Assembly (NCBI GenBank): GCA_016720545.1
Contig: JADKKK010000003.1
Coordinates: 345,516 to 409,515, forward strand
DNA: 64,000 bases
DNA from: Myxococcales bacterium
Lineage (GTDB): Bacteria; Myxococcota_A; Polyangia; Polyangiales; Polyangiaceae
Reading direction: 5' to 3'
The stretch's first letter is position 1. Each line of letters starts with the position of its first letter. This document shows positions 43,469-58,010 of this stretch, piece after piece. The notes beneath the pieces were generated by a model. That model did no database searches, was not told the DNA's origin, and saw only the letters and a list, made by a program, of their open reading frames with translations. A program made the translations under genes and the position numbers.

Positions 43469-44686
43469 TTAGATGTAGTGCACCTTGATCGTCTCGACGA
43501 TGGTCTTCAGGGCGCGCTTGACCACGTCGGTGCTCGGATCGCGGACGATGACGTACCCGTCGCCCTCGTAGCCGTCGCTCTTCGGGGCCCCCTCCTTCGG
43601 GAGGTCGGCCTCGACGACGAGGCGCCCCACGGCGGCGTGTGTCTCCCGCACGCCCGAGACCCCCACCACGCGCCCGCGGCCCATGCCCCGGAGGAAGGCG
43701 CAGCCGACCGCGTACTTGCGGTGCCACGGGGCGTCGAGCTCGCCGTCCACCACGGCGCGCGCCCAGCCGCGGTACGGGTCGATGTCGTGCGCGAGGCCGG
43801 TCATGCGCGAGATGTTCGCGCCCGGCGGACGCTGCGCGATCTCGCCGATCGCGAGGGTGCCGTCGCCGCGCTGGAACCACTCCATGTGCGTGAACCCGTC
43901 GTCGAGGCCGAGCGCCTCGACCGCGGCGAAACCGAGCGTGCGCGCGCCGTCGTACTCGGGCCCCTCGATGTCGCGCGGCAAGAGACACGACCACTGGATC
44001 CACGGATTCTCCAGGACCTCGAGGCAGCTCGGCAGGTAGTGCGAGAGCGAGTACACGCGTGGCTTGCCCCCGAGCGTGATGGTCTCGAAGCTGAACTCGC
44101 GGCCGCGCAGGAACTCCTCGGCGAGCACGGGCTGCTCGGCGGACACGCGCAGCCCCGCGAGCGCGGCGGACAGCTCCTCGTTCGAGCCCACGCGGAACGT
44201 GGCCTTGGCGCCCATACCCGCCGGCGGCTTCAGCACGATGGGGAAGCCCACGTCGGCCGCGAACGCGCGGGCGTCTGCCTCGTTCGTGGCGAGCTTGTGC
44301 CGCGCGACGGGCAGGCCGGCGGCGCGGAGCGCGTCCTTCATGCGCGCCTTGTCGCGGAAGAGGTCGGCCGTGCGAGGCGAGGTGCCGGGCACGTTGAACG
44401 CCGCGCGCGCCTCGGCGAGCTGCACCATCAGCGCCTCCAGAATGCCCACGATGCGCGCCGGCTGACCGTGGCGACGCCGCAGCACCTCGACGGCCTCGAG
44501 CAGCTCGCGGCCCGAGAGCGGATCGGAGACCCGCACGAGGTCGTGGTAGAGGCGCGCGTCCGCGCCCTGCGGCGGCGTGTGCACGACGCCGAGCACCCGC
44601 ACGTCGTGCAGGCCGGCGACGGCGCGGAGGAAGCGCATGGTGGTCTCGGCCGGGAAGGGCGCGACGAAGACGATGTTGCGAGGCAT
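43469..44686 (-). CDS. ATP-grasp domain protein, carboxylate-amine / L-amino-acid-ligase-like
   Basis: FRDKARMKDAL, IVLKPPAGMGAKATF, EEFLRGREFSFETI, C-terminal extension. Intact 405 aa. Confidence 0.7.
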   Translation of the reverse strand: MPRNIVFVAPFPAETTMRFLRAVAGLHDVRVLGVVHTPPQGADARLYHDLVRVSDPLSGRELLEAVEVLRRRHGQPARIVGILEALMVQLAEARAAFNVPGTSPRTADLFRDKARMKDALRAAGLPVARHKLATNEADARAFAADVGFPIVLKPPAGMGAKATFRVGSNEELSAALAGLRVSAEQPVLAEEFLRGREFSFETITLGGKPRVYSLSHYLPSCLEVLENPWIQWSCLLPRDIEGPEYDGARTLGFAAVEALGLDDGFTHMEWFQRGDGTLAIGEIAQRPPGANISRMTGLAHDIDPYRGWARAVVDGELDAPWHRKYAVGCAFLRGMGRGRVVGVSGVRETHAAVGRLVVEADLPKEGAPKSDGYEGDGYVIVRDPSTDVVKRALKTIVETIKVHYI

Positions 44687-44874
44687 GGCGCGCAGGGTGG
44701 TCCGCCGAGGGCCGCGGCGTCAACCGCCTCCGTGCGAGGCGGCCCCGCCGTCCGCCGCGCCGGCGCTCCGGGCGCAGAGCTCGCGCGAGTCGCGGTCTCG
44801 GACACGCAGAGGTTGCGTGGCGGTCTGCCTCATCGGCCGGCCCCGCGCGACCGCGGCCGTGGTACATCCTCCGG

Positions 44875-46092
44875 ATGCGCGTCGTCTTCCTTGCGCCCCT
44901 CTATCCGCCGGAGATGCAGCAGTACACGCGCGGGCTCGCCGAGGTGGGCGCCGAGGTGTACGGCGTCGCCGACACCCCGCGCGAGGCCGTGCCGCCTTCG
45001 CTGCGTCCCTACCTGCGCGACTACCTCCAGGTGCCTCGCATCATGGACGAGGACGACGTCATCGCGCGCGTGTCGCGGTGGCTCCGCGGGAAATCGATCG
45101 ATCGCGTCGTGACCAACTGGGAGCCCCTCGTCGTCACCGCGGCGCGGCTCCGCGAACGCTGGGGAATGCCCGGCATGAGCGTCGACACCGCGCGCGGGTT
45201 CCGCGACAAGCAGCTCATGAAGGACCGTGTCCGCGCGGCGGGCCTCCGCGTGCCGCGGTCGCGGCGCGTGCGTGGGGAGCGCGAGATCCGCGCCGCCGCG
45301 GAGGAGATAGGCTATCCGCTCATCGTCAAGCCGATCGACGGCGCCGGCAGCGCCAACACCTACAAAGCGACGACCGACAAGGAGCTAGACGACCTCATCC
45401 CGCGCATGCGCGGCGTGCCCGAGTGCATCTGCGAGGAGTTCATCGAAGGCGAGGAGTTCACCTTCGACACCGTCTGCATCGAGGGGCGCCCCGCGTTCGA
45501 GAACATCGCGGCCTATCTCCCCAAGCCGCTCGAGATGCGCACGGTCGAGTGGATAAGCCCGGTCATCATCACCGTGAAAGACATGTACCAGCCGCGCCTC
45601 CGCGGGGGCGTCACGCTCGGCCGCAAGGTGCTCGGCGCGCTCGGCATGGACGACGGCTTCACGCACATGGAGTGGTACCTCACCTCGAAGGGCGAGGCGG
45701 TGTTCGGCGAAATCGGGTGTCGCCCAGGCGGCGCGTGCCTCGTCGACCAGATGAACTACACGTGCGACATCGACCTGTTTCGCGAGTGGGCGCGCGTGGT
45801 CTGCTACGGGCGCTTCGAGGCGAGCACCAAGCGCAAGTACAACGCGGGCATCGTGTTCAAGCGCGCGCTCGGCGAGGGGCGTATCACGCGCATCGAGGGG
45901 CTCGACGCGTGGCTTCGCGCGTGCGGCGACTGGGTGACCGACGAGCAGCTGCTCCGGCCCGGCACCCCCCGTCGAAACTGGAAGAACACCTTGCTGTCGG
46001 ACGGGTGGGTGCATGTGCGCCATCCCGACTGGGCCGAGGCGCACCGCATGGCCTTCGCGGCGGCCTCCGGCATTAAAATGTTCGCGGAGTAG
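44875..46092 (+). CDS. ATP-grasp domain protein, paralog of 43469..44686, divergently transcribed
   Basis: FRDKQLMKDRV, LIVKPIDGAGSANTY, EEFIEGEEFTFDTV. Same N-terminal pre-domain layout (MRVVFLAPLYPPE.. vs MPRNIVFVAPFPAE..). Confidence 0.7.
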   Translation: MRVVFLAPLYPPEMQQYTRGLAEVGAEVYGVADTPREAVPPSLRPYLRDYLQVPRIMDEDDVIARVSRWLRGKSIDRVVTNWEPLVVTAARLRERWGMPGMSVDTARGFRDKQLMKDRVRAAGLRVPRSRRVRGEREIRAAAEEIGYPLIVKPIDGAGSANTYKATTDKELDDLIPRMRGVPECICEEFIEGEEFTFDTVCIEGRPAFENIAAYLPKPLEMRTVEWISPVIITVKDMYQPRLRGGVTLGRKVLGALGMDDGFTHMEWYLTSKGEAVFGEIGCRPGGACLVDQMNYTCDIDLFREWARVVCYGRFEASTKRKYNAGIVFKRALGEGRITRIEGLDAWLRACGDWVTDEQLLRPGTPRRNWKNTLLSDGWVHVRHPDWAEAHRMAFAAASGIKMFAE

Positions 46093-46151: not shown

Positions 46152-47093
46152 TCAGAAGTGCTCCATCCACTTCCACATGGGCACTCGGTACACGTCGCGC
46201 AGATCGTGCTTGTAGGGGCTCGTCGCCGTGTCTTCGCACCAGAGCACGGGCGCGGCGCCGGGGCAGCCGTCGTAGGCGACACAGCCCTTCGCGTCGAGCC
46301 CCCACTGCGTGACGGGCTTCGAGGCCTTGGAGCACCCGTTGATGGCGATCCATTTGTCGCGCGCCGCGACGCCGTTCGCCACCGGCTCGTCGTCGTCCTC
46401 GCGGCGGTGATAGACGAGGGCGGACGTCTTGCCGCACCCGCTCTCCTTGTCCGCGAAGCCGCCGTCGGCGGCGACGATCGCGCGCACCGCCGACGAACGC
46501 CTGCAGCCCAGGTGGTTCGTCATGTACGCGCCGTAGCTGAAGCCGAGCGCGAACACCCGCTGCGGGTTCACGCACAGCGTGGCGCCCAGGCTCTTCTGCA
46601 TAGCGTCGAAGAAGAGCAGGTCTTGCTCGCCCTCGATGTCCCAACGCCCGCCCGCGCCGTCGGGGAACACGACGATGGCGTTGCCCGCGGAGTAGTCTTG
46701 CATCTTTACGAACTGGGACATCTGCGTGCCGTTGGCGCCGATCCCGTGGAACACGAAGACCACGGGGTAGGCGCGCGATGGGTCGTACCCGGCGGGCACG
46801 TAGAGCACGTACGAGCGCTTCGCCGCGCCCACGTCGACGGTCTTCTTGTCGCCGGCGGCTGGGCTCGGCTTCGCCGCCACACCACACCCGGGCGTCGTGG
46901 TGGGTAAGCCGCTCCCGCCGTCGTCGCCGGGCGCGGTGCCCGTGCCGGTCGCGGTGGCCGTGGCGGTGGCCGTGGCGGTGGGCGCGTCGGCCCCCTGCGC
47001 GCCGCCGTCGCCGGACGCGCCAGGGTCGTCACCGCCGCAGCGTATCAGGAAGGGTGCGAGCGCCCCCAAGAGCGCGAGCCGTGCGAACCTCAT
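46152..47093 (-). CDS. Secreted esterase lipoprotein, PHB-depolymerase/LpqC-like alpha/beta hydrolase
   Basis: Signal plus Cys, (TA)n/(TG)n linker, VVFVFHGIGANG, GFSYGAYM (GxSxG). Confidence 0.7.
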   Translation of the reverse strand: MRFARLALLGALAPFLIRCGGDDPGASGDGGAQGADAPTATATATATATGTGTAPGDDGGSGLPTTTPGCGVAAKPSPAAGDKKTVDVGAAKRSYVLYVPAGYDPSRAYPVVFVFHGIGANGTQMSQFVKMQDYSAGNAIVVFPDGAGGRWDIEGEQDLLFFDAMQKSLGATLCVNPQRVFALGFSYGAYMTNHLGCRRSSAVRAIVAADGGFADKESGCGKTSALVYHRREDDDEPVANGVAARDKWIAINGCSKASKPVTQWGLDAKGCVAYDGCPGAAPVLWCEDTATSPYKHDLRDVYRVPMWKWMEHF

Positions 47094-47709: not shown

Positions 47710-49176
47710 CTACTCGCTCGGCGGCTGGATGCTGCGGTAGATGCGCTCGTAGCTCGCGACGCGTTCGGCCCACCCGAAGCGGAGCCGCATGCCGTTCTGT
47801 TGGAGCCTCCGCCAGCGCGCGCGGTCCTCACCGCGGCCGGTGCCCCAGGTGCGGAGCGCCTGGTCGACGCCGTACGCGAAGCCGGGCTCATCGAAGTGAT
47901 CGAACACGAAGCCGTTGCCCTCGCCGCTGCGTCGGTCGAAGGCCGTGACCGTGTCGGCGAGGCCGCCCGTGCGATGCACGACGGGCGGGGTGCCGTAGCG
48001 CAGGCTGTACATCTGGTTCAGACCGCAGGGCTCGTAGCGCGAGGGCATGAGGAAGCAGTCGGAGCCGGCCTCCACTTTGTGCGCGATAGGCTCGCTGAAC
48101 GCCGCGCGATAGGCCACCTGGTTCGGGAACCGGCGGGAGAGACCGCGAAAAAACTCCTCGTATTTCGGCTCACCGGTGCCGAGCACCACGAGCTGCACGG
48201 GGCGACGCGCCAGCACGCGAGGCAGCACGCCGAAGCAGAGGTCGAAGCCCTTCTGCCAGGCGAGGCGCGACACGATGCCGAACACGAGGACGTGCGCGTG
48301 GTACCTGAGCCCCGCGGAGCGCACGAGGTCGCGCTTGCACACCTCCTTGCCCTCGAGCGAGTCGATCGCGTAGCGCTGGGCGAGGTGCGGATCGGTCTCG
48401 GGGCTCCAGTCGTTCTCGTCGACGCCGTTCAGGATGCCGAACAGCACGTTTTCGCGCTCACGCAGGAAGGCGTCGAGCCCGGCGCCGTGCTCCGGTCGCT
48501 GGATCTCCTTCGCGTACGTGGGGCTCACCGTGGTGAGCGCGTTCGCGTAGAGAATGCCCGTGAGCAGGAAGTTGATGCGCCCCTCGCGGAGCTGGTCTTG
48601 GTGGAAGTGGTGGGCGGCCGCGCCGAGGCCCGTCTCCCCCAAGATGCGCGCGTCGAAGGAGCCCTGGTGGCCGATGTTGTGAATCGTGAGCACGCAGCGG
48701 GTGCGCTCGAAGAGGCGATCCCACGCGAACGCGGTCTTCAGGAGCAACGGCAAGAGGGCCGTCTGCCAGTCGTTCGCGTGGACGATGTCGGGCGCGAACC
48801 CGAGGCGCTGGCAGAGCAGCAGCGACGCCCACGACAAGACGATGAAGCGAAGGTGCTCGTCGGCGTCTTGGGTGTAGATCGAGGGGCGGTCGTAGAGCCC
48901 CGGACAACGCACGAAGTAGACGGGCGCGCGGGTCCCCGGGAACACGCCCTCGAGGATCGACACGATCACCCGCGTGCCGCCGAGCTCGATCGAGAGCTCG
49001 CTCACGGCGGTCGTGAGGTCGGGCGCGTGCGCGTGCACTCGCGGGTAAAGCGGCATCACGACGCGTACGTCGTGACCACGCTCCGCGAGCCGCTGCGGCA
49101 GCGCGCCGGCCACGTCGCCGAGGCCCCCGGTCTTCGCGAAGGGGGCGACCTCCGAGGCGACGAAGAGCACCCTCAC
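47710..49176 (-). CDS. glgA: Glycogen synthase (GT5)
   Basis: GTG start VRVLFVASEVAPFAKTGGLGDV, HANDWQTAL, SRYEPCGL. Confidence 0.9.
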   Translation of the reverse strand: MRVLFVASEVAPFAKTGGLGDVAGALPQRLAERGHDVRVVMPLYPRVHAHAPDLTTAVSELSIELGGTRVIVSILEGVFPGTRAPVYFVRCPGLYDRPSIYTQDADEHLRFIVLSWASLLLCQRLGFAPDIVHANDWQTALLPLLLKTAFAWDRLFERTRCVLTIHNIGHQGSFDARILGETGLGAAAHHFHQDQLREGRINFLLTGILYANALTTVSPTYAKEIQRPEHGAGLDAFLRERENVLFGILNGVDENDWSPETDPHLAQRYAIDSLEGKEVCKRDLVRSAGLRYHAHVLVFGIVSRLAWQKGFDLCFGVLPRVLARRPVQLVVLGTGEPKYEEFFRGLSRRFPNQVAYRAAFSEPIAHKVEAGSDCFLMPSRYEPCGLNQMYSLRYGTPPVVHRTGGLADTVTAFDRRSGEGNGFVFDHFDEPGFAYGVDQALRTWGTGRGEDRARWRRLQQNGMRLRFGWAERVASYERIYRSIQPPSE

Positions 49177-49365
49177 GAGCGAGGGTCCCAGGTGGGAGCG
49201 GGGGCGCCGCGCGAGGCGGCGGGACGCGGTACGGGAGACGAAGGCGAGACGGAGTGGGCACACGCGCGCGGGGCGCGGGCGAGAGAGGAGGCGTCGCTCA
49301 TGGGCGGCCGGAGCATCGCACAGAGTCGCGCCCCCTCTCACCGAAACCCGCAGTAAGCGCGCCGA

Positions 49366-49841
49366 TCAGGGCTTCCTTTTCGGCGCGGCGGCCTTCTTCT
49401 TCGGCGCGGCCTTCTTCGGCGCGGCGGCCTTCTTCGGCGCGGCGGCCTTCTTCGGCGCGGCGGCCTTCTTCGGCGCGGCCGCCGGCGCGGCTTGCTCCCA
49501 TATGCCGAGCGCCGCGCCCGAGGGATCGAGGAAGACGCCGAGCGCCCCCATGTTGGGGATGGGCTGGTACTCGACCAGGATCGTGGCGCCGCGCTTCTTC
49601 GCCTTCGCGATGGTCTTCTTCACGCTGTCGACCTGCACGTATGGCAACCACTGCTTCGGCGCGCCGGGCGTCGGGTTCGGGCCCATACCGCCCCCAGCCC
49701 CGGGGCCGTTGCCGACGCCGAGCATGGTGTAGCCCGGCATAGGCGACGTGAACTCCCACGCGAAGAGGCCCTTGTAGAACTTCTTCGAGGCTGCGAGGTC
49801 GGAGGTGTTGAGCTCGATGTGAACGAATGCATTCGGCATGG
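49366..49841 (-). CDS. VOC (glyoxalase/bleomycin-resistance fold) protein fused to a Lys/Ala/Pro-rich histone-H1-like tail: (AAPKKA)n
   Basis: MPNAFVHIELNTSDLAASKKFYKGLFAWEF... then PKKAAAPKKAAAPKKAAAPKKAAPKKKAAAPKRKP. Encoded by a 21-bp DNA repeat x4. RBS GGAG upstream. Confidence 0.7.
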
Positions 49842-49914
49842 TGTCTCCCCTTCCAAAAATGGACCCCGAAACGTACGCAAGACCCGACCGGCCGTCCATG
49901 GTGGCCTCGCGCGG

Positions 49915-50445
49915 CGCGGCGCGGGAGCGCCCGGCGTGCGATGGCGGCCACCGTTCATGGACGACACCTCGCCTTGGGCTCGGGGCGTGTCTCCACGGTC
50001 TCCACGAGGTCACCGCGCGAACGCCGATCGCCGAGCTCAGCAATCACGAGCACCTTCGTGAATGACTAGCGCTACTGCGAGACTTCGCACGAAGCGCGCC
50101 AAGTCGATCCACGCGCCGATCACGCTTGGCTTACGAGGGAGAACCATTCGAGTGTTCGAAGTCCGTACACGGGATGTTCGGAAGCGGTACGTACGCGCGC
50201 TCTCCGTTCAGGGGTGTGGCGTGGAAAGACCAGCTCGTCATGCAGCGGAGCTCGCCCCTCCGGCTTGCGAGCGCGAGTCGCGCCGGATCGCTCTTGCTCG
50301 CACGGCGCCGATGTCTGGGGTCCCCGAGCGACGAGGGGGCGGACGGAACGCGGCCATCGAGCGCGGCGCGGGAGCGCCCGGCGTGCGATGGCGGCCACCG
50401 GGCGTGTCTCCAGGAGGTCACCGCGCGCGCGAACCCCGGGCCCCA
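49915..50445. repeat. Two direct repeats (about 110 bp at 49915-50030, about 90 bp at 50358-50445) sharing a 39-bp identical core GCGCGGGAGCGCCCGGCGTGCGATGGCGGCCACCG plus GGGCGTGTCTCCA..AGGTCACCGCGCG. They sit in a 690-bp divergent intergenic region.
   Basis: Seen directly. Confidence 0.7.
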
Positions 50446-55628: not shown

Positions 55629-56870
55629 GTGATCTCCTCGAAACTCCCCCGCACCAAAGAAGACCGCGCGATCTTCTTCGACGAAAAGGCCTGGCTGAAC
55701 CGCTGGGACCGGCTGACCGAGGAGGGGAAGAAGCTCAAGCGCTGCAAGCGCTGCCTGTACGGCGAGGATCTCCCGTCCATTAAGTTCGACGAGCTCGGCG
55801 TCTGCAACTACTGCGCGATGCACGACAAGCTCGAGGCCGAGTACCAGACCGGCTCCGAGGCGGCTTCGCGCCGGTTCTCGGAGATCGTGCAGAGCATCAA
55901 GGACGAGGGCCGGGGAAAACCCTACGATCTGGTGGTCGGGGTGAGCGGCGGCGCCGATTCGTCGTACCTCATCCACCTCGCGAAGGAGCGCGGCCTCCGC
56001 CCGCTCGCTGTTCACTACGACAACACGTGGAACTCCACCATCGCGGTGGAGAACATCCATAGCGTGCTGAAGAAGCACGACGTGGAGCTCAACACCTACG
56101 TGGTCGACAACGAGGAGTACGACGAGATTTACCGCGCGTTCCTGCGCTCTGGCACGATCGACCTCGACTGCCCGACCGATCTCGCCCTCGCGACCGTGCT
56201 CAATCGCGTCGCTGAAGAGGTGGGGACGCGCTTCATCTTCGAGGGCCACTCCTTCCAGAGCGAGGGCCTGTTCCCCATCGGCTGGCTCTACATGGACGCT
56301 CGCTACGTCCAGAGCGTCGTCACGCGCCATGGAAACGTGAAGCTCGACACGTATCCGAGCCTCTGGTTGAAAGACCAACTCCGCTGGATGCTCGCGCGGC
56401 GAATCAGGAAGGTACGACCGCTCTGGTATCTCCGGTACGACAAGCCGGCCGTCAAGGAGATGCTCATCCGAGACTACGGCTGGAAGTGGTACGGCGGTCA
56501 CCACCTCGAGAACCGGATCACCTCTTTCTGGCACACCTACTTCGCCCCCCGCAGGTGGAGCATCGACGCCCGCATCGTCGGGCACTCCGCGCACGTTCGC
56601 TCGGGCCTCCTGGGCCGCGACGAGGCGGCGGCCGATATCGAGGGACCTCCGCCTTGCTCCATGGACCAAGTGTTCATGATCATGAAGCGCTGGGGGTTCG
56701 ACCAGGCCCAATTCGAAGACTTGATGACGCTTCCGTTCCACGGGTATCGTGAATACGACACGTACAAGACCGTCTTCGAGAGGGGGCGCCCGTTCTTCTA
56801 CATGCTCGCCAAGCTCGAGCTCATTCCGATGAGCTTCTACGTAAAGTACACGTCGAAGGACAACATCTGA
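55629..56870 (+). CDS. N-acetyl sugar amidotransferase (WbpG/PseA-like PP-loop ATP pyrophosphatase)
   Basis: CxxC...CxxC N-terminus (CKRCLYGEDLPSIKFDELGVCNYC). PP-loop VGVSGGADSSY. Noticeably lower GC and A/T-ending codons compared with neighbours. Confidence 0.7.
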   Translation: MISSKLPRTKEDRAIFFDEKAWLNRWDRLTEEGKKLKRCKRCLYGEDLPSIKFDELGVCNYCAMHDKLEAEYQTGSEAASRRFSEIVQSIKDEGRGKPYDLVVGVSGGADSSYLIHLAKERGLRPLAVHYDNTWNSTIAVENIHSVLKKHDVELNTYVVDNEEYDEIYRAFLRSGTIDLDCPTDLALATVLNRVAEEVGTRFIFEGHSFQSEGLFPIGWLYMDARYVQSVVTRHGNVKLDTYPSLWLKDQLRWMLARRIRKVRPLWYLRYDKPAVKEMLIRDYGWKWYGGHHLENRITSFWHTYFAPRRWSIDARIVGHSAHVRSGLLGRDEAAADIEGPPPCSMDQVFMIMKRWGFDQAQFEDLMTLPFHGYREYDTYKTVFERGRPFFYMLAKLELIPMSFYVKYTSKDNI

Positions 56871-57002
56871 GGAACGAGATCTCGTGAAGTTGGGTTGGTC
56901 CTATTCCCACATGGAGTCGACGCAGATCGCCTGCGTCGAGCAGCTCGCGTCCACGGGGACCGTGCGCGACGGCGCTGCGCAGCGCGATTCGAGAGGTAGC
57001 AA

Positions 57003-58010
57003 GTGAGCGACGCAGGTCTTTCTGAACACTGGAGCGCGGACCGCCTCAAGCTTCCGTCGCAAATCGCCCCCGACGACTACGTGAAGGCCCTCCTCGCGTC
57101 CGTGCCCGAGGAACGATACGACCACTATCGGCTCTACCCTGCGACGGACAAGAAGGGCTGGCAGGAGTTCCGGCGAGAGCGCCTGAGAGACGCGCTCGCC
57201 GACGAGGAGACCGTCTTCTTCGGCGACATCGTAGATGGCTTGGCGCTGGCCGTTGGCTGCAAGCTGCCCAGCTGGGACCTGAACCACTTCGGCTTCCCCA
57301 TCGCGAAGATCACCTGGATGGTCTCGTACAACTTGGCGGGCGCCTCGCGAGTCATGGCGCGCCTCATGGACGAGTGCATGGCGTTCCTCGCGAGCCGCGG
57401 CGTCAAGCTCATCGTCACGAGGGTGGACGGGGACGATCTCGCGAACCTCCACCTGCTCGAAGATCAGGGGTATCGGTACTACGAGAACTCGCTCTGGTCC
57501 GTCATGGACTACTCGAAGATGCCGGCGTCGTTCGAGCGTCCCAACGTTCGCTTCATCGAAGACGCGGACATCGAGCGGGTGCTCGATCTCGCGGGGCGCT
57601 ACCAGTACTCGCGCAGCCACTACTACTGCGACGAGCGCATGGATCGCGCCCGGATCGACGACATGTACCGGGAGTGGTTCAAGACCAGCCTTCGGCGCAA
57701 AGAGCCCGTCATGGTCGTCCTCGACGAGGGCGAGGTCATCGGGGGCATCGTCTACCGGTTCCAGCCTTCGCTCTCGAAGCATCTGGGCCACAACTACGGC
57801 CAGCCCCACCTCATGATGATCGAGCCCCGCTCGCGCGGGAAGGGGCTCGGCATGGCGATGTTCCAGGGGAGCATGTACCTCATGTCGACCCTCGGCTCCA
57901 CGTGGCTCGACACGGGCCTCGCGAGCAGGAATCACCCCTCCGCGCGCACCACGATCACCTCGGGCTTCCGCCCCGTCTACGAGGAGATCACCTTCCACCG
58001 TTGGCTCTGA
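57003..58010 (+). CDS. GNAT-fold acyltransferase (two-lobed, sugar N-acyltransferase-like)
   Basis: C-terminal GNAT core VMVVLDEGEVIGGIVY...PRSRGKGLGMAMF. Lower GC, like the amidotransferase. Confidence 0.55.
   Translation: MSDAGLSEHWSADRLKLPSQIAPDDYVKALLASVPEERYDHYRLYPATDKKGWQEFRRERLRDALADEETVFFGDIVDGLALAVGCKLPSWDLNHFGFPIAKITWMVSYNLAGASRVMARLMDECMAFLASRGVKLIVTRVDGDDLANLHLLEDQGYRYYENSLWSVMDYSKMPASFERPNVRFIEDADIERVLDLAGRYQYSRSHYYCDERMDRARIDDMYREWFKTSLRRKEPVMVVLDEGEVIGGIVYRFQPSLSKHLGHNYGQPHLMMIEPRSRGKGLGMAMFQGSMYLMSTLGSTWLDTGLASRNHPSARTTITSGFRPVYEEITFHRWL

Follow-up and report, generated by a model that had tools for sequence, protein, structure and literature searches.

The window analyzed here is a stretch of 64,000 nucleotides (G+C content ~72%) from contig JADKKK010000003.1 of a Myxococcales bacterium (Polyangiaceae; assembly GCA_016720545.1). 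Our subject is a pair of genes within it, here named grA and grB, which encode ATP-grasp enzymes resembling L-amino-acid ligases (LALs). The two genes lie head-to-head and are transcribed divergently from the two sides of a short intergenic region (Table 1). Their start codons are backed by homologs of equal length (100% coverage), and the products are paralogs, with 34% identity over 389 aligned amino acids (E value of 5e-68). A first-pass annotation made from the sequence alone had described two head-to-head genes for proteins of ~405 amino acids with the same architecture, separated by ~190 bp. Both open reading frames (ORFs) were found exactly as described, and the intergenic region measures 188 bp. 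The three motifs it had named, FRDKxxMK, (L/V)KPxxGxG(A/S)xxT, and EEFxxGxEFxFxT, were also recovered. On direct reading of the sequences, no signal peptide was seen in either protein, and both are therefore likely cytoplasmic.

Catalytic motifs and family placement

We aligned the motifs of 36 to 37 sequences from both ortholog groups. The ATP-binding lysine of (V/L)KP, the EE hinge, and the H-M-E-W (HxE) motif are invariant throughout, and so in both groups is the Mg/phosphate motif E-I-x-x-R-P-x-G, of which the LAL RizA shares an "EIAMR" (E-I-A-x-R) variant. With these motifs intact, neither protein looks like a pseudoenzyme, and both are probably catalytically competent. Altogether, 76 columns are fixed to one residue in both groups, including the motifs named above. 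A further 67 positions are fixed inside each group yet differ between the groups; they occur in all domains and in the active-site loop (EIGCRPGG versus EIAQRPPG). Such group-specific fixation indicates two constrained, different functions, and judged by these alignments grA and grB appear functionally distinct and non-redundant.

Pfam recognized both proteins by generic ATP-grasp models only, barely over threshold. Their membership in the ATP-grasp superfamily is supported by these matches above cut-off, by the invariant motifs, and by confident AlphaFold2 (AF2) models that match hundreds of ATP-grasp structures. LALs rank first by sequence and by structure alike. Both proteins show the overall LAL architecture (about 400 to 470 amino acids; N, central, and C domains and a subdomain at the C terminus), and no other ATP-grasp family comes as close to them. 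In the placement figures, PurT and PurK stand at about 29 to 31; GAR synthetase, biotin carboxylases, and carbamoyl-phosphate synthase (CPSase) at 22 to 27; Ddl, LysX, RimK, and PGM1 at 18 to 21; glutathione synthetase at about 17; and the graspetide ligases CdnC, PsnB, AMdnB, MdnC, and PruB at 13.6 to 16.3. The view of the first-pass annotation that the pair is LAL-like rather than related to Ddl, RimK, or PurK is thus borne out.

The characterized LALs are nonetheless distant. RizA (PDB entry 4wd3), BL00235 (3vot), and BacD/YwfE (3vmm, 3wnz) of Bacillus share 18 to 21% identity with grA and grB. The curated LAL models were missed by a wide margin (BacD NF053745, 44.6 bits against a cut-off of 850; DdaF NF041595, 23.4 against 840), and the curated Ddl and RimK models were missed by an order of magnitude as well. 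The Pfam domain LAL_C2 was not found in the window proteins (E ≤ 0.01) and was seen solely as a "faint" precomputed hit in one grA ortholog. NCBIfam assigned no family to either protein, every curated score being far under its cut-off. The best-scoring models were PRK02186 (78/66 bits, cut-off 625) and PRK07206 (48/59 bits, cut-off 302), which also score best for grC, a third paralog described below (range for the three proteins, 48 to 78 bits), and whose alignments to all three span most of the ATP-grasp module. PRK02186 describes an ATP-grasp enzyme fused to an argininosuccinate-lyase-like domain, a fusion that grA and grB do not carry. We take PRK02186 and PRK07206, the latter a hypothetical ATP-grasp protein of 416 amino acids, to be uncharacterized LAL-like proteins themselves. 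By all these sequence and structure comparisons, grA and grB are probable ATP-grasp carboxylate-amine ligases of the LAL structural type that stand outside every characterized LAL family. The pair constitutes a new, uncharacterized family within the LAL-type ATP-grasp ligases, and our full-text literature searches found no description of this family or of its gene combination.

Some automatic annotations would instead make the two proteins divergent versions of known primary enzymes, namely PurK/PurT-like proteins, biotin carboxylase, or CPSase. Scores against the corresponding models are far below the cut-offs (purK, 39.4 bits against 318; purT, 22.6 against 502; accC, 24 against 626.5; CPSase large subunit, 44 against 1,027), and the C-terminal domain of biotin carboxylases is missing. 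Furthermore, the gene context is not that of purine synthesis, as expected for PurT (GAR transformylase 2) and PurK (N5-CAIR synthetase): three paralogs occur in a neighborhood of ligases and hydrolases rather than in pur or acc contexts. We consider this explanation highly improbable, and the names "biotin carboxylase," "carbamoyl-phosphate synthase large subunit," and "GAR transformylase" misleading for these proteins; they are corrected here to LAL-type ligases. An anti-phage defense system was also considered and rejected, as PADLOC-DB gave no match for grA or grB (E ≤ 0.001).

Conservation and recurrent gene partners

Thousands of database relatives exist for grB, the best 120 of which are all at least 75% identical, and the picture for grA is similar. 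From 260 relative-encoding stretches in one-genome-per-species data we kept 80 genomic loci (other counts below are over 82 loci). Their products are 69 to 97% identical to the window proteins, or 69 to 82% without the 97%-identical locus L001, a contig of a Polyangiaceae metagenome-assembled genome that is the nearest public relative of the window (95 to 97% protein identity). The lineages represented are Polyangiaceae/Polyangiales, Labilithrix, Sandaracinaceae, Kofleriaceae, Myxococcaceae, Myxococcus, Archangium, Anaeromyxobacteraceae, and Bradymonadia. At 70 to 82% identity, orthologs are present in every major myxobacterial lineage; a Myxococcus species, for example, carries grB at 72% identity (L041). 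The family is narrow, since a library holding 1.8 billion representatives at the 50% identity level yielded only 210 proteins at E ≤ 1e-30.

In the 18 genomes in which grA, grB, and the glycogen synthase gene glgA all lie nearby, the products share on average 71% (grA), 76% (grB), and 65% (glgA) identity with those of the window. Conservation above that of glycogen synthase is at the level of core physiology, and the pair looks like part of the conserved physiology of Myxococcota rather than of a strain-specific antibiotic cluster. This sets it apart from the known LALs, which are single genes in strain-specific antibiotic clusters such as those for rhizocticin and bacilysin, whereas grA and grB form a paralog pair (a triad with grC) that is found phylum-wide at 70 to 80% identity and has hydrolase partners. 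The check suggested with the first-pass annotation, placement in a primary-metabolism clade together with conserved synteny, came out divided: conservation and synteny do resemble those of core physiology, but no known primary-metabolism clade fits, the curated scores being far under their cut-offs.

A grA ortholog was found in 57 of the 82 loci. In 42 of these 57 loci with both genes, from several orders, the grA start lies head-to-head within less than 400 bp of the grB start, and the pairing is therefore not due to chance. At the other extreme, 18 of the 75 loci with enough upstream sequence have no grA within 10 kb. Two remote singletons, one grB-like (L083, 44% identity) and one grA-like (L084, 43%), have uninformative gene contexts.

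Partner genes were identified by gene calling based on GC3 (G+C content at third codon positions) and clustering of all loci, followed by Pfam, NCBIfam, and tblastn checks. One recurrent partner encodes an amidohydrolase resembling the N-formylglutamate-amidohydrolase family (FGase-like; PF05013, 28 bits against a cut-off of 28.9), for which a PDB sequence search gave no match. Its gene immediately follows grA in 13 loci, with gaps of 5 to 32 bp, and grB in 2; in 3 loci it converges on grB, and in another 3 it lies nearby. Archangium/Myxococcaceae-type loci have it in an operon with grA, and Anaeromyxobacteraceae loci in one with grB.

Genes of a second group, the grC operon, occur within 10 kb of the pair in 31 of the 82 loci, in three different arrangements; Labilithrix luteola (L081) has the full set of genes. 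The operon comprises, in order, grC, an S51-like peptidase gene of the cyanophycinase/dipeptidase E family, a gene for an enterochelin-esterase-like esterase, one for a 413-amino-acid ATP-grasp-like protein, a second esterase-like gene, and a gene for a GCS2-CBS protein. The grC product is a LAL-like protein of about 408 amino acids and 35 to 37% identity to both grA and grB. Similarity of the 413-amino-acid protein to ATP-grasp enzymes is confined to their ATP-binding segment, also in a PDB sequence search. The GCS2-CBS protein combines a domain of glutamate-cysteine-ligase family 2 (GCS2; 28 bits against a cut-off of 21) with a CBS pair, and in the PDB search the CBS domains alone were matched. 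The same block of S51 (a strong hit), esterase, 423-amino-acid protein, and esterase was seen on a contig whose grC-like gene is 54% identical. Among the library representatives, the A-, B-, and C-like groups each have separate divergent members (40 to 54% identity), and the paralog split is therefore old.

The same library contains P0371, a remote homolog of 818 amino acids in which two LAL-like ATP-grasp modules are naturally fused in tandem. Its first half consists of ATP-grasp_4 plus LAL_C2, and its second half is a relative of the grA/grB family. The only other sign of a domain fusion was a possible, weak HAD-like N terminus. Neither fusion points to a substrate.

In another conceivable role, grA and grB would attach amino acids to one specific protein or ribosomal peptide, at its C terminus or on a side chain, as RimK, TTL, and PGM1 do; erasure would then fall to the FGase- and S51-like proteins. 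No conserved target gene is present, however, and the tagging ligases are structurally distant, which makes such a role quite unlikely.

The gene glgA itself is a third recurrent neighbor. It lies 1.6 kb from grB in the window, and tblastn placed it no more than 10 kb from grB in 19 of the 80 loci (Polyangia, Anaeromyxobacteraceae, Sandaracinaceae, and Bradymonadia). The grC operon is often divergently paired with glgA, with spacers of 27 to 86 bp; in L081 and L082, the tight divergent partner of grC has the Pfam domains Glyco_transf_5 and Glycos_transf_1. A functional link between glgA and the pair is uncertain.

Together, these neighbors bring to mind a cyanophycin-like or other poly-amino-acid reserve that the A, B, and C paralogs would build, that the S51- and FGase-like hydrolases would mobilize, and that would be co-regulated with glycogen synthesis. 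Several ligases and several hydrolases share one neighborhood, glgA is a neighbor of the pair and a divergent partner of grC, and the association of an ATP-grasp ligase with an S51 peptidase, as in cyanophycin synthetase and cyanophycinase, is present in other genomes by way of grC. The similarity to cyanophycin synthetase is weak (36 to 42 bits) and generic to the ATP-grasp core, with 41.9/36.3 bits against a cut-off of 850 for the model cya_phycin_syn. Moreover, CphA is a multidomain protein of roughly 900 amino acids with a Mur-ligase-like module, whereas grA and grB are single LAL modules of 405 amino acids that lack a Mur-ligase-like domain, and the window holds no S51 gene. Their nearest structures are dipeptide-forming enzymes, the literature searched reports no such polymer from myxobacteria, and the glgA linkage could be inherited synteny. 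We regard a reserve polymer as unlikely.

Intergenic region and neighboring genes

The corresponding spacer in 41 other loci measures 19 to 170 bp, mostly 19 to 100 bp, with a median near 70 bp. No Rfam match was obtained in the spacer of the window (E ≤ 1), and a riboswitch or other RNA at this position was rejected on these grounds; across the whole window, neither tRNA genes nor Rfam families passing the gathering threshold were found. A simple scan of the spacer revealed no consensus sigma-70 promoters or terminators. The hexamer GTCAAC, which reads GTTGAC on the grA strand, lies about 32 to 37 nucleotides upstream of the grA ATG in the window. When 19 spacers from various lineages were aligned, it recurred in most of them, at about 32 to 50 nucleotides from the grA ATG, and it may represent a -35-like box of a putative promoter. 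On the other side, a TGn-TACATC element is located 7 nucleotides ahead of the grB ATG. No obvious GGAGG-type Shine-Dalgarno sequence precedes either gene in the window. This, together with the positions of the two elements, suggests very short or leaderless transcripts, and leaderless transcription of grA and grB, or transcription with very short leaders, is possible. In some genomes the start codons are just 19 to 25 bp apart, so that the promoters there would lie inside the coding sequence of the partner.

The first-pass annotation had put forward a candidate small-peptide or graspetide-type biosynthetic pair and had noted that no precursor ORF was evident. The latter observation holds, as our scan of the spacer and flanks for short ORFs found no credible candidate. 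The lone free ORF of the spacer (37 amino acids) is missing from L001, where the spacer is 74% identical and the frame is disrupted by indels of 23 and 1 nucleotides. With a GC3 of 0.82 and a GC2 (second codon positions) of 0.68, compared with 0.92 to 0.96 and 0.47 to 0.48 in the real genes, its codon-position G+C content is that of non-coding sequence. A precursor peptide in the spacer or flanks was rejected, given this unconserved ORF and flank gaps of only 21 and 59 bp; spacers down to 19 bp leave no room for a precursor gene in any case.

These observations bear on the idea that grA and grB are macrocyclases of a graspetide (microviridin type) or of another ribosomally synthesized and posttranslationally modified peptide (RiPP) with an unannotated precursor. 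What speaks for it is the pair itself, for microviridin-type graspetides rely on two ATP-grasp ligases and are present in myxobacteria (PMC12848669). The likeness to MdnB/MdnC pairs, including the myxobacterial MyxF systems, ends with two ATP-grasp genes acting together. The ligase class is a different one, the proteins having neither the fold nor the sequence of the MdnB/MdnC type; no adjacent precursor with a leader and a Thr/Ser plus Asp/Glu core is present; and the distribution is wrong. Accordingly, a graspetide or other RiPP pair is scarcely conceivable, and the proposal of a graspetide-type or small secondary-metabolite pair does not stand against the wrong ligase clade, the missing precursor, and the phylum-wide conservation.

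Each neighbor in the window was searched by tblastn against the 80 loci. The pair is flanked, as previously noted, by a trypsin-family (S1) protease gene (Pfam Trypsin, 47 bits), convergent with grA and 21 bp from its 3' end, and by an esterase gene. Neither is a conserved partner: the protease was found in none of the 80 loci, and the esterase, like an ACBP gene, recurs in L001 only. As nothing recurs beyond this near-identical locus, both were rejected as cluster members and should not be read as part of a cluster. The esterase contains a (Thr-Ala)n linker, and its top curated match is an extracellular short-chain polyhydroxyalkanoate depolymerase of type 1 (67 bits, below the cut-off of 150).

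The other neighbors in the window, which encode ProB, an acyltransferase, an epimerase, a methyltransferase, a cyclase, ACBP, and a glyoxalase-fold protein, gave no sign of nonribosomal peptide synthetase (NRPS), polyketide synthase, or RiPP machinery. By tblastn, none of the recurrent partners, i.e., grC, the S51-like gene, both esterases, the 413-amino-acid ATP-grasp-like protein, the GCS2-CBS protein, and the FGase-like gene, is present in the window. The informative partners thus lie outside it, and the window itself is mechanistically unsurprising. The glyoxalase/VOC-fold protein has lysine/alanine-rich C-terminal repeats of the AAPKK type that resemble histone H1. A segment with two plus-strand ORFs shows a G+C dip (0.63, compared with about 0.72) and may have been acquired horizontally.

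Table 1. Location of grA, grB, and associated features in the window and, where a locus is named, in other genomes
Feature	Position	Strand	Remarks
grA, LAL-like ATP-grasp enzyme, paralog A	43469–44686	-	405 aa, ATG start
Intergenic region	44687–44874		Divergent; both promoters presumably lie here; devoid of coding and structured-RNA content
GTCAAC, -35-like hexamer	44718–44723	-	
Free ORF in spacer	44720–44833	-	
grB, LAL-like ATP-grasp enzyme, paralog B	44875–46092	+	405 aa, ATG start
Secreted alpha/beta-hydrolase esterase	46152–47093	-	Convergent, 59 bp from grB 3' end
glgA, glycogen synthase	47710–49341	-	Start codon may be at 49263
Glyoxalase/VOC-fold protein	49366–50013	-	
Segment with G+C dip	55629–58010		
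ORF in segment	55629–56870	+	413 aa, SGGADSSY PP-loop-like motif
ORF in segment	57003–58010	+	335 aa
FGase-like gene	L035:2341–3246; L074:7808–8713; L027:4447 onward; L017:11225 onward		
grC operon	L081:1149–3328; L082:1761–3973; also L003, L046, L047, L051, L068, L071, L074		

Proposed function of the pair

ATP-grasp enzymes phosphorylate a carboxylate with ATP and release amide, ADP, and phosphate when an amine attacks the resulting acyl-phosphate. LALs join L-amino acids into dipeptides (PMC9486568). From their fold and motifs, grA and grB may likewise ligate unprotected L-amino acids to dipeptides. Each enzyme would activate the carboxylate of its substrate as an acyl-phosphate in an ATP-dependent manner and pass it on to an amine; the likeliest acceptor would be an alpha-amino group, supplied by an amino acid or a short peptide.

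We propose that grA and grB provide two LAL-type ligation steps of one conserved cytoplasmic peptide or amide pathway, and we assign this reading a probability of roughly 55%. It builds on the fold, the intact catalytic motifs, the paralogy, the conservation, and the gene linkage of the pair, all of which were established directly. Joint function is supported by the head-to-head adjacency across orders and by the natural LAL-LAL fusion of 818 amino acids among the remote relatives. The two genes would be co-regulated from their short shared promoter region, and their products would catalyze different ligations, either as sequential enzymes or as a hetero-oligomer, independently of ribosome and NRPS. 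In other genomes, the FGase-like amidohydrolase and the products of the grC operon would be further components of the pathway. The amino-acid substrates, the order of action, and the nature of the product are what we infer from this framework.

As to the product, the FGase and S51 families act on N-acyl-Glu and Asp-peptide bonds. The linkage of FGase, S51, and GCS2 families to the pair suggests a small, probably Asp/Glu-containing, acidic peptide or oligomer that is both synthesized and turned over. More tentatively, and with clearly less confidence than we place in the two ligation steps, the three ancient LAL-type paralogs and their partners (the fourth, ATP-grasp-like protein, the GCS2-CBS carboxylate-amine ligase, and the S51-like, FGase-like, and esterase-family hydrolases) might together form an undescribed, phylum-wide, NRPS-independent multi-ligase system, often located beside glycogen synthase. 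Such a system could both make and recycle an intracellular peptide, for instance a glutathione-like acidic or thiol peptide or a poly-amino-acid reserve running parallel to glycogen.

Myxobacteria are abundant soil predators and major producers of natural products, and LAL-type enzymes have so far been known mainly from a few strain-specific antibiotic clusters. If the proposed two-step ligation pathway holds true, myxobacteria carry a strongly conserved, uncharacterized, ribosome-independent peptide pathway built from LAL-type enzymes, for which grA and grB are a good lead. LALs with new specificities would widen the toolbox for enzymatic peptide synthesis, and the product, once identified, might turn out to be a core metabolite not previously known from the phylum, be it an osmolyte, a redox peptide, or a nitrogen store.

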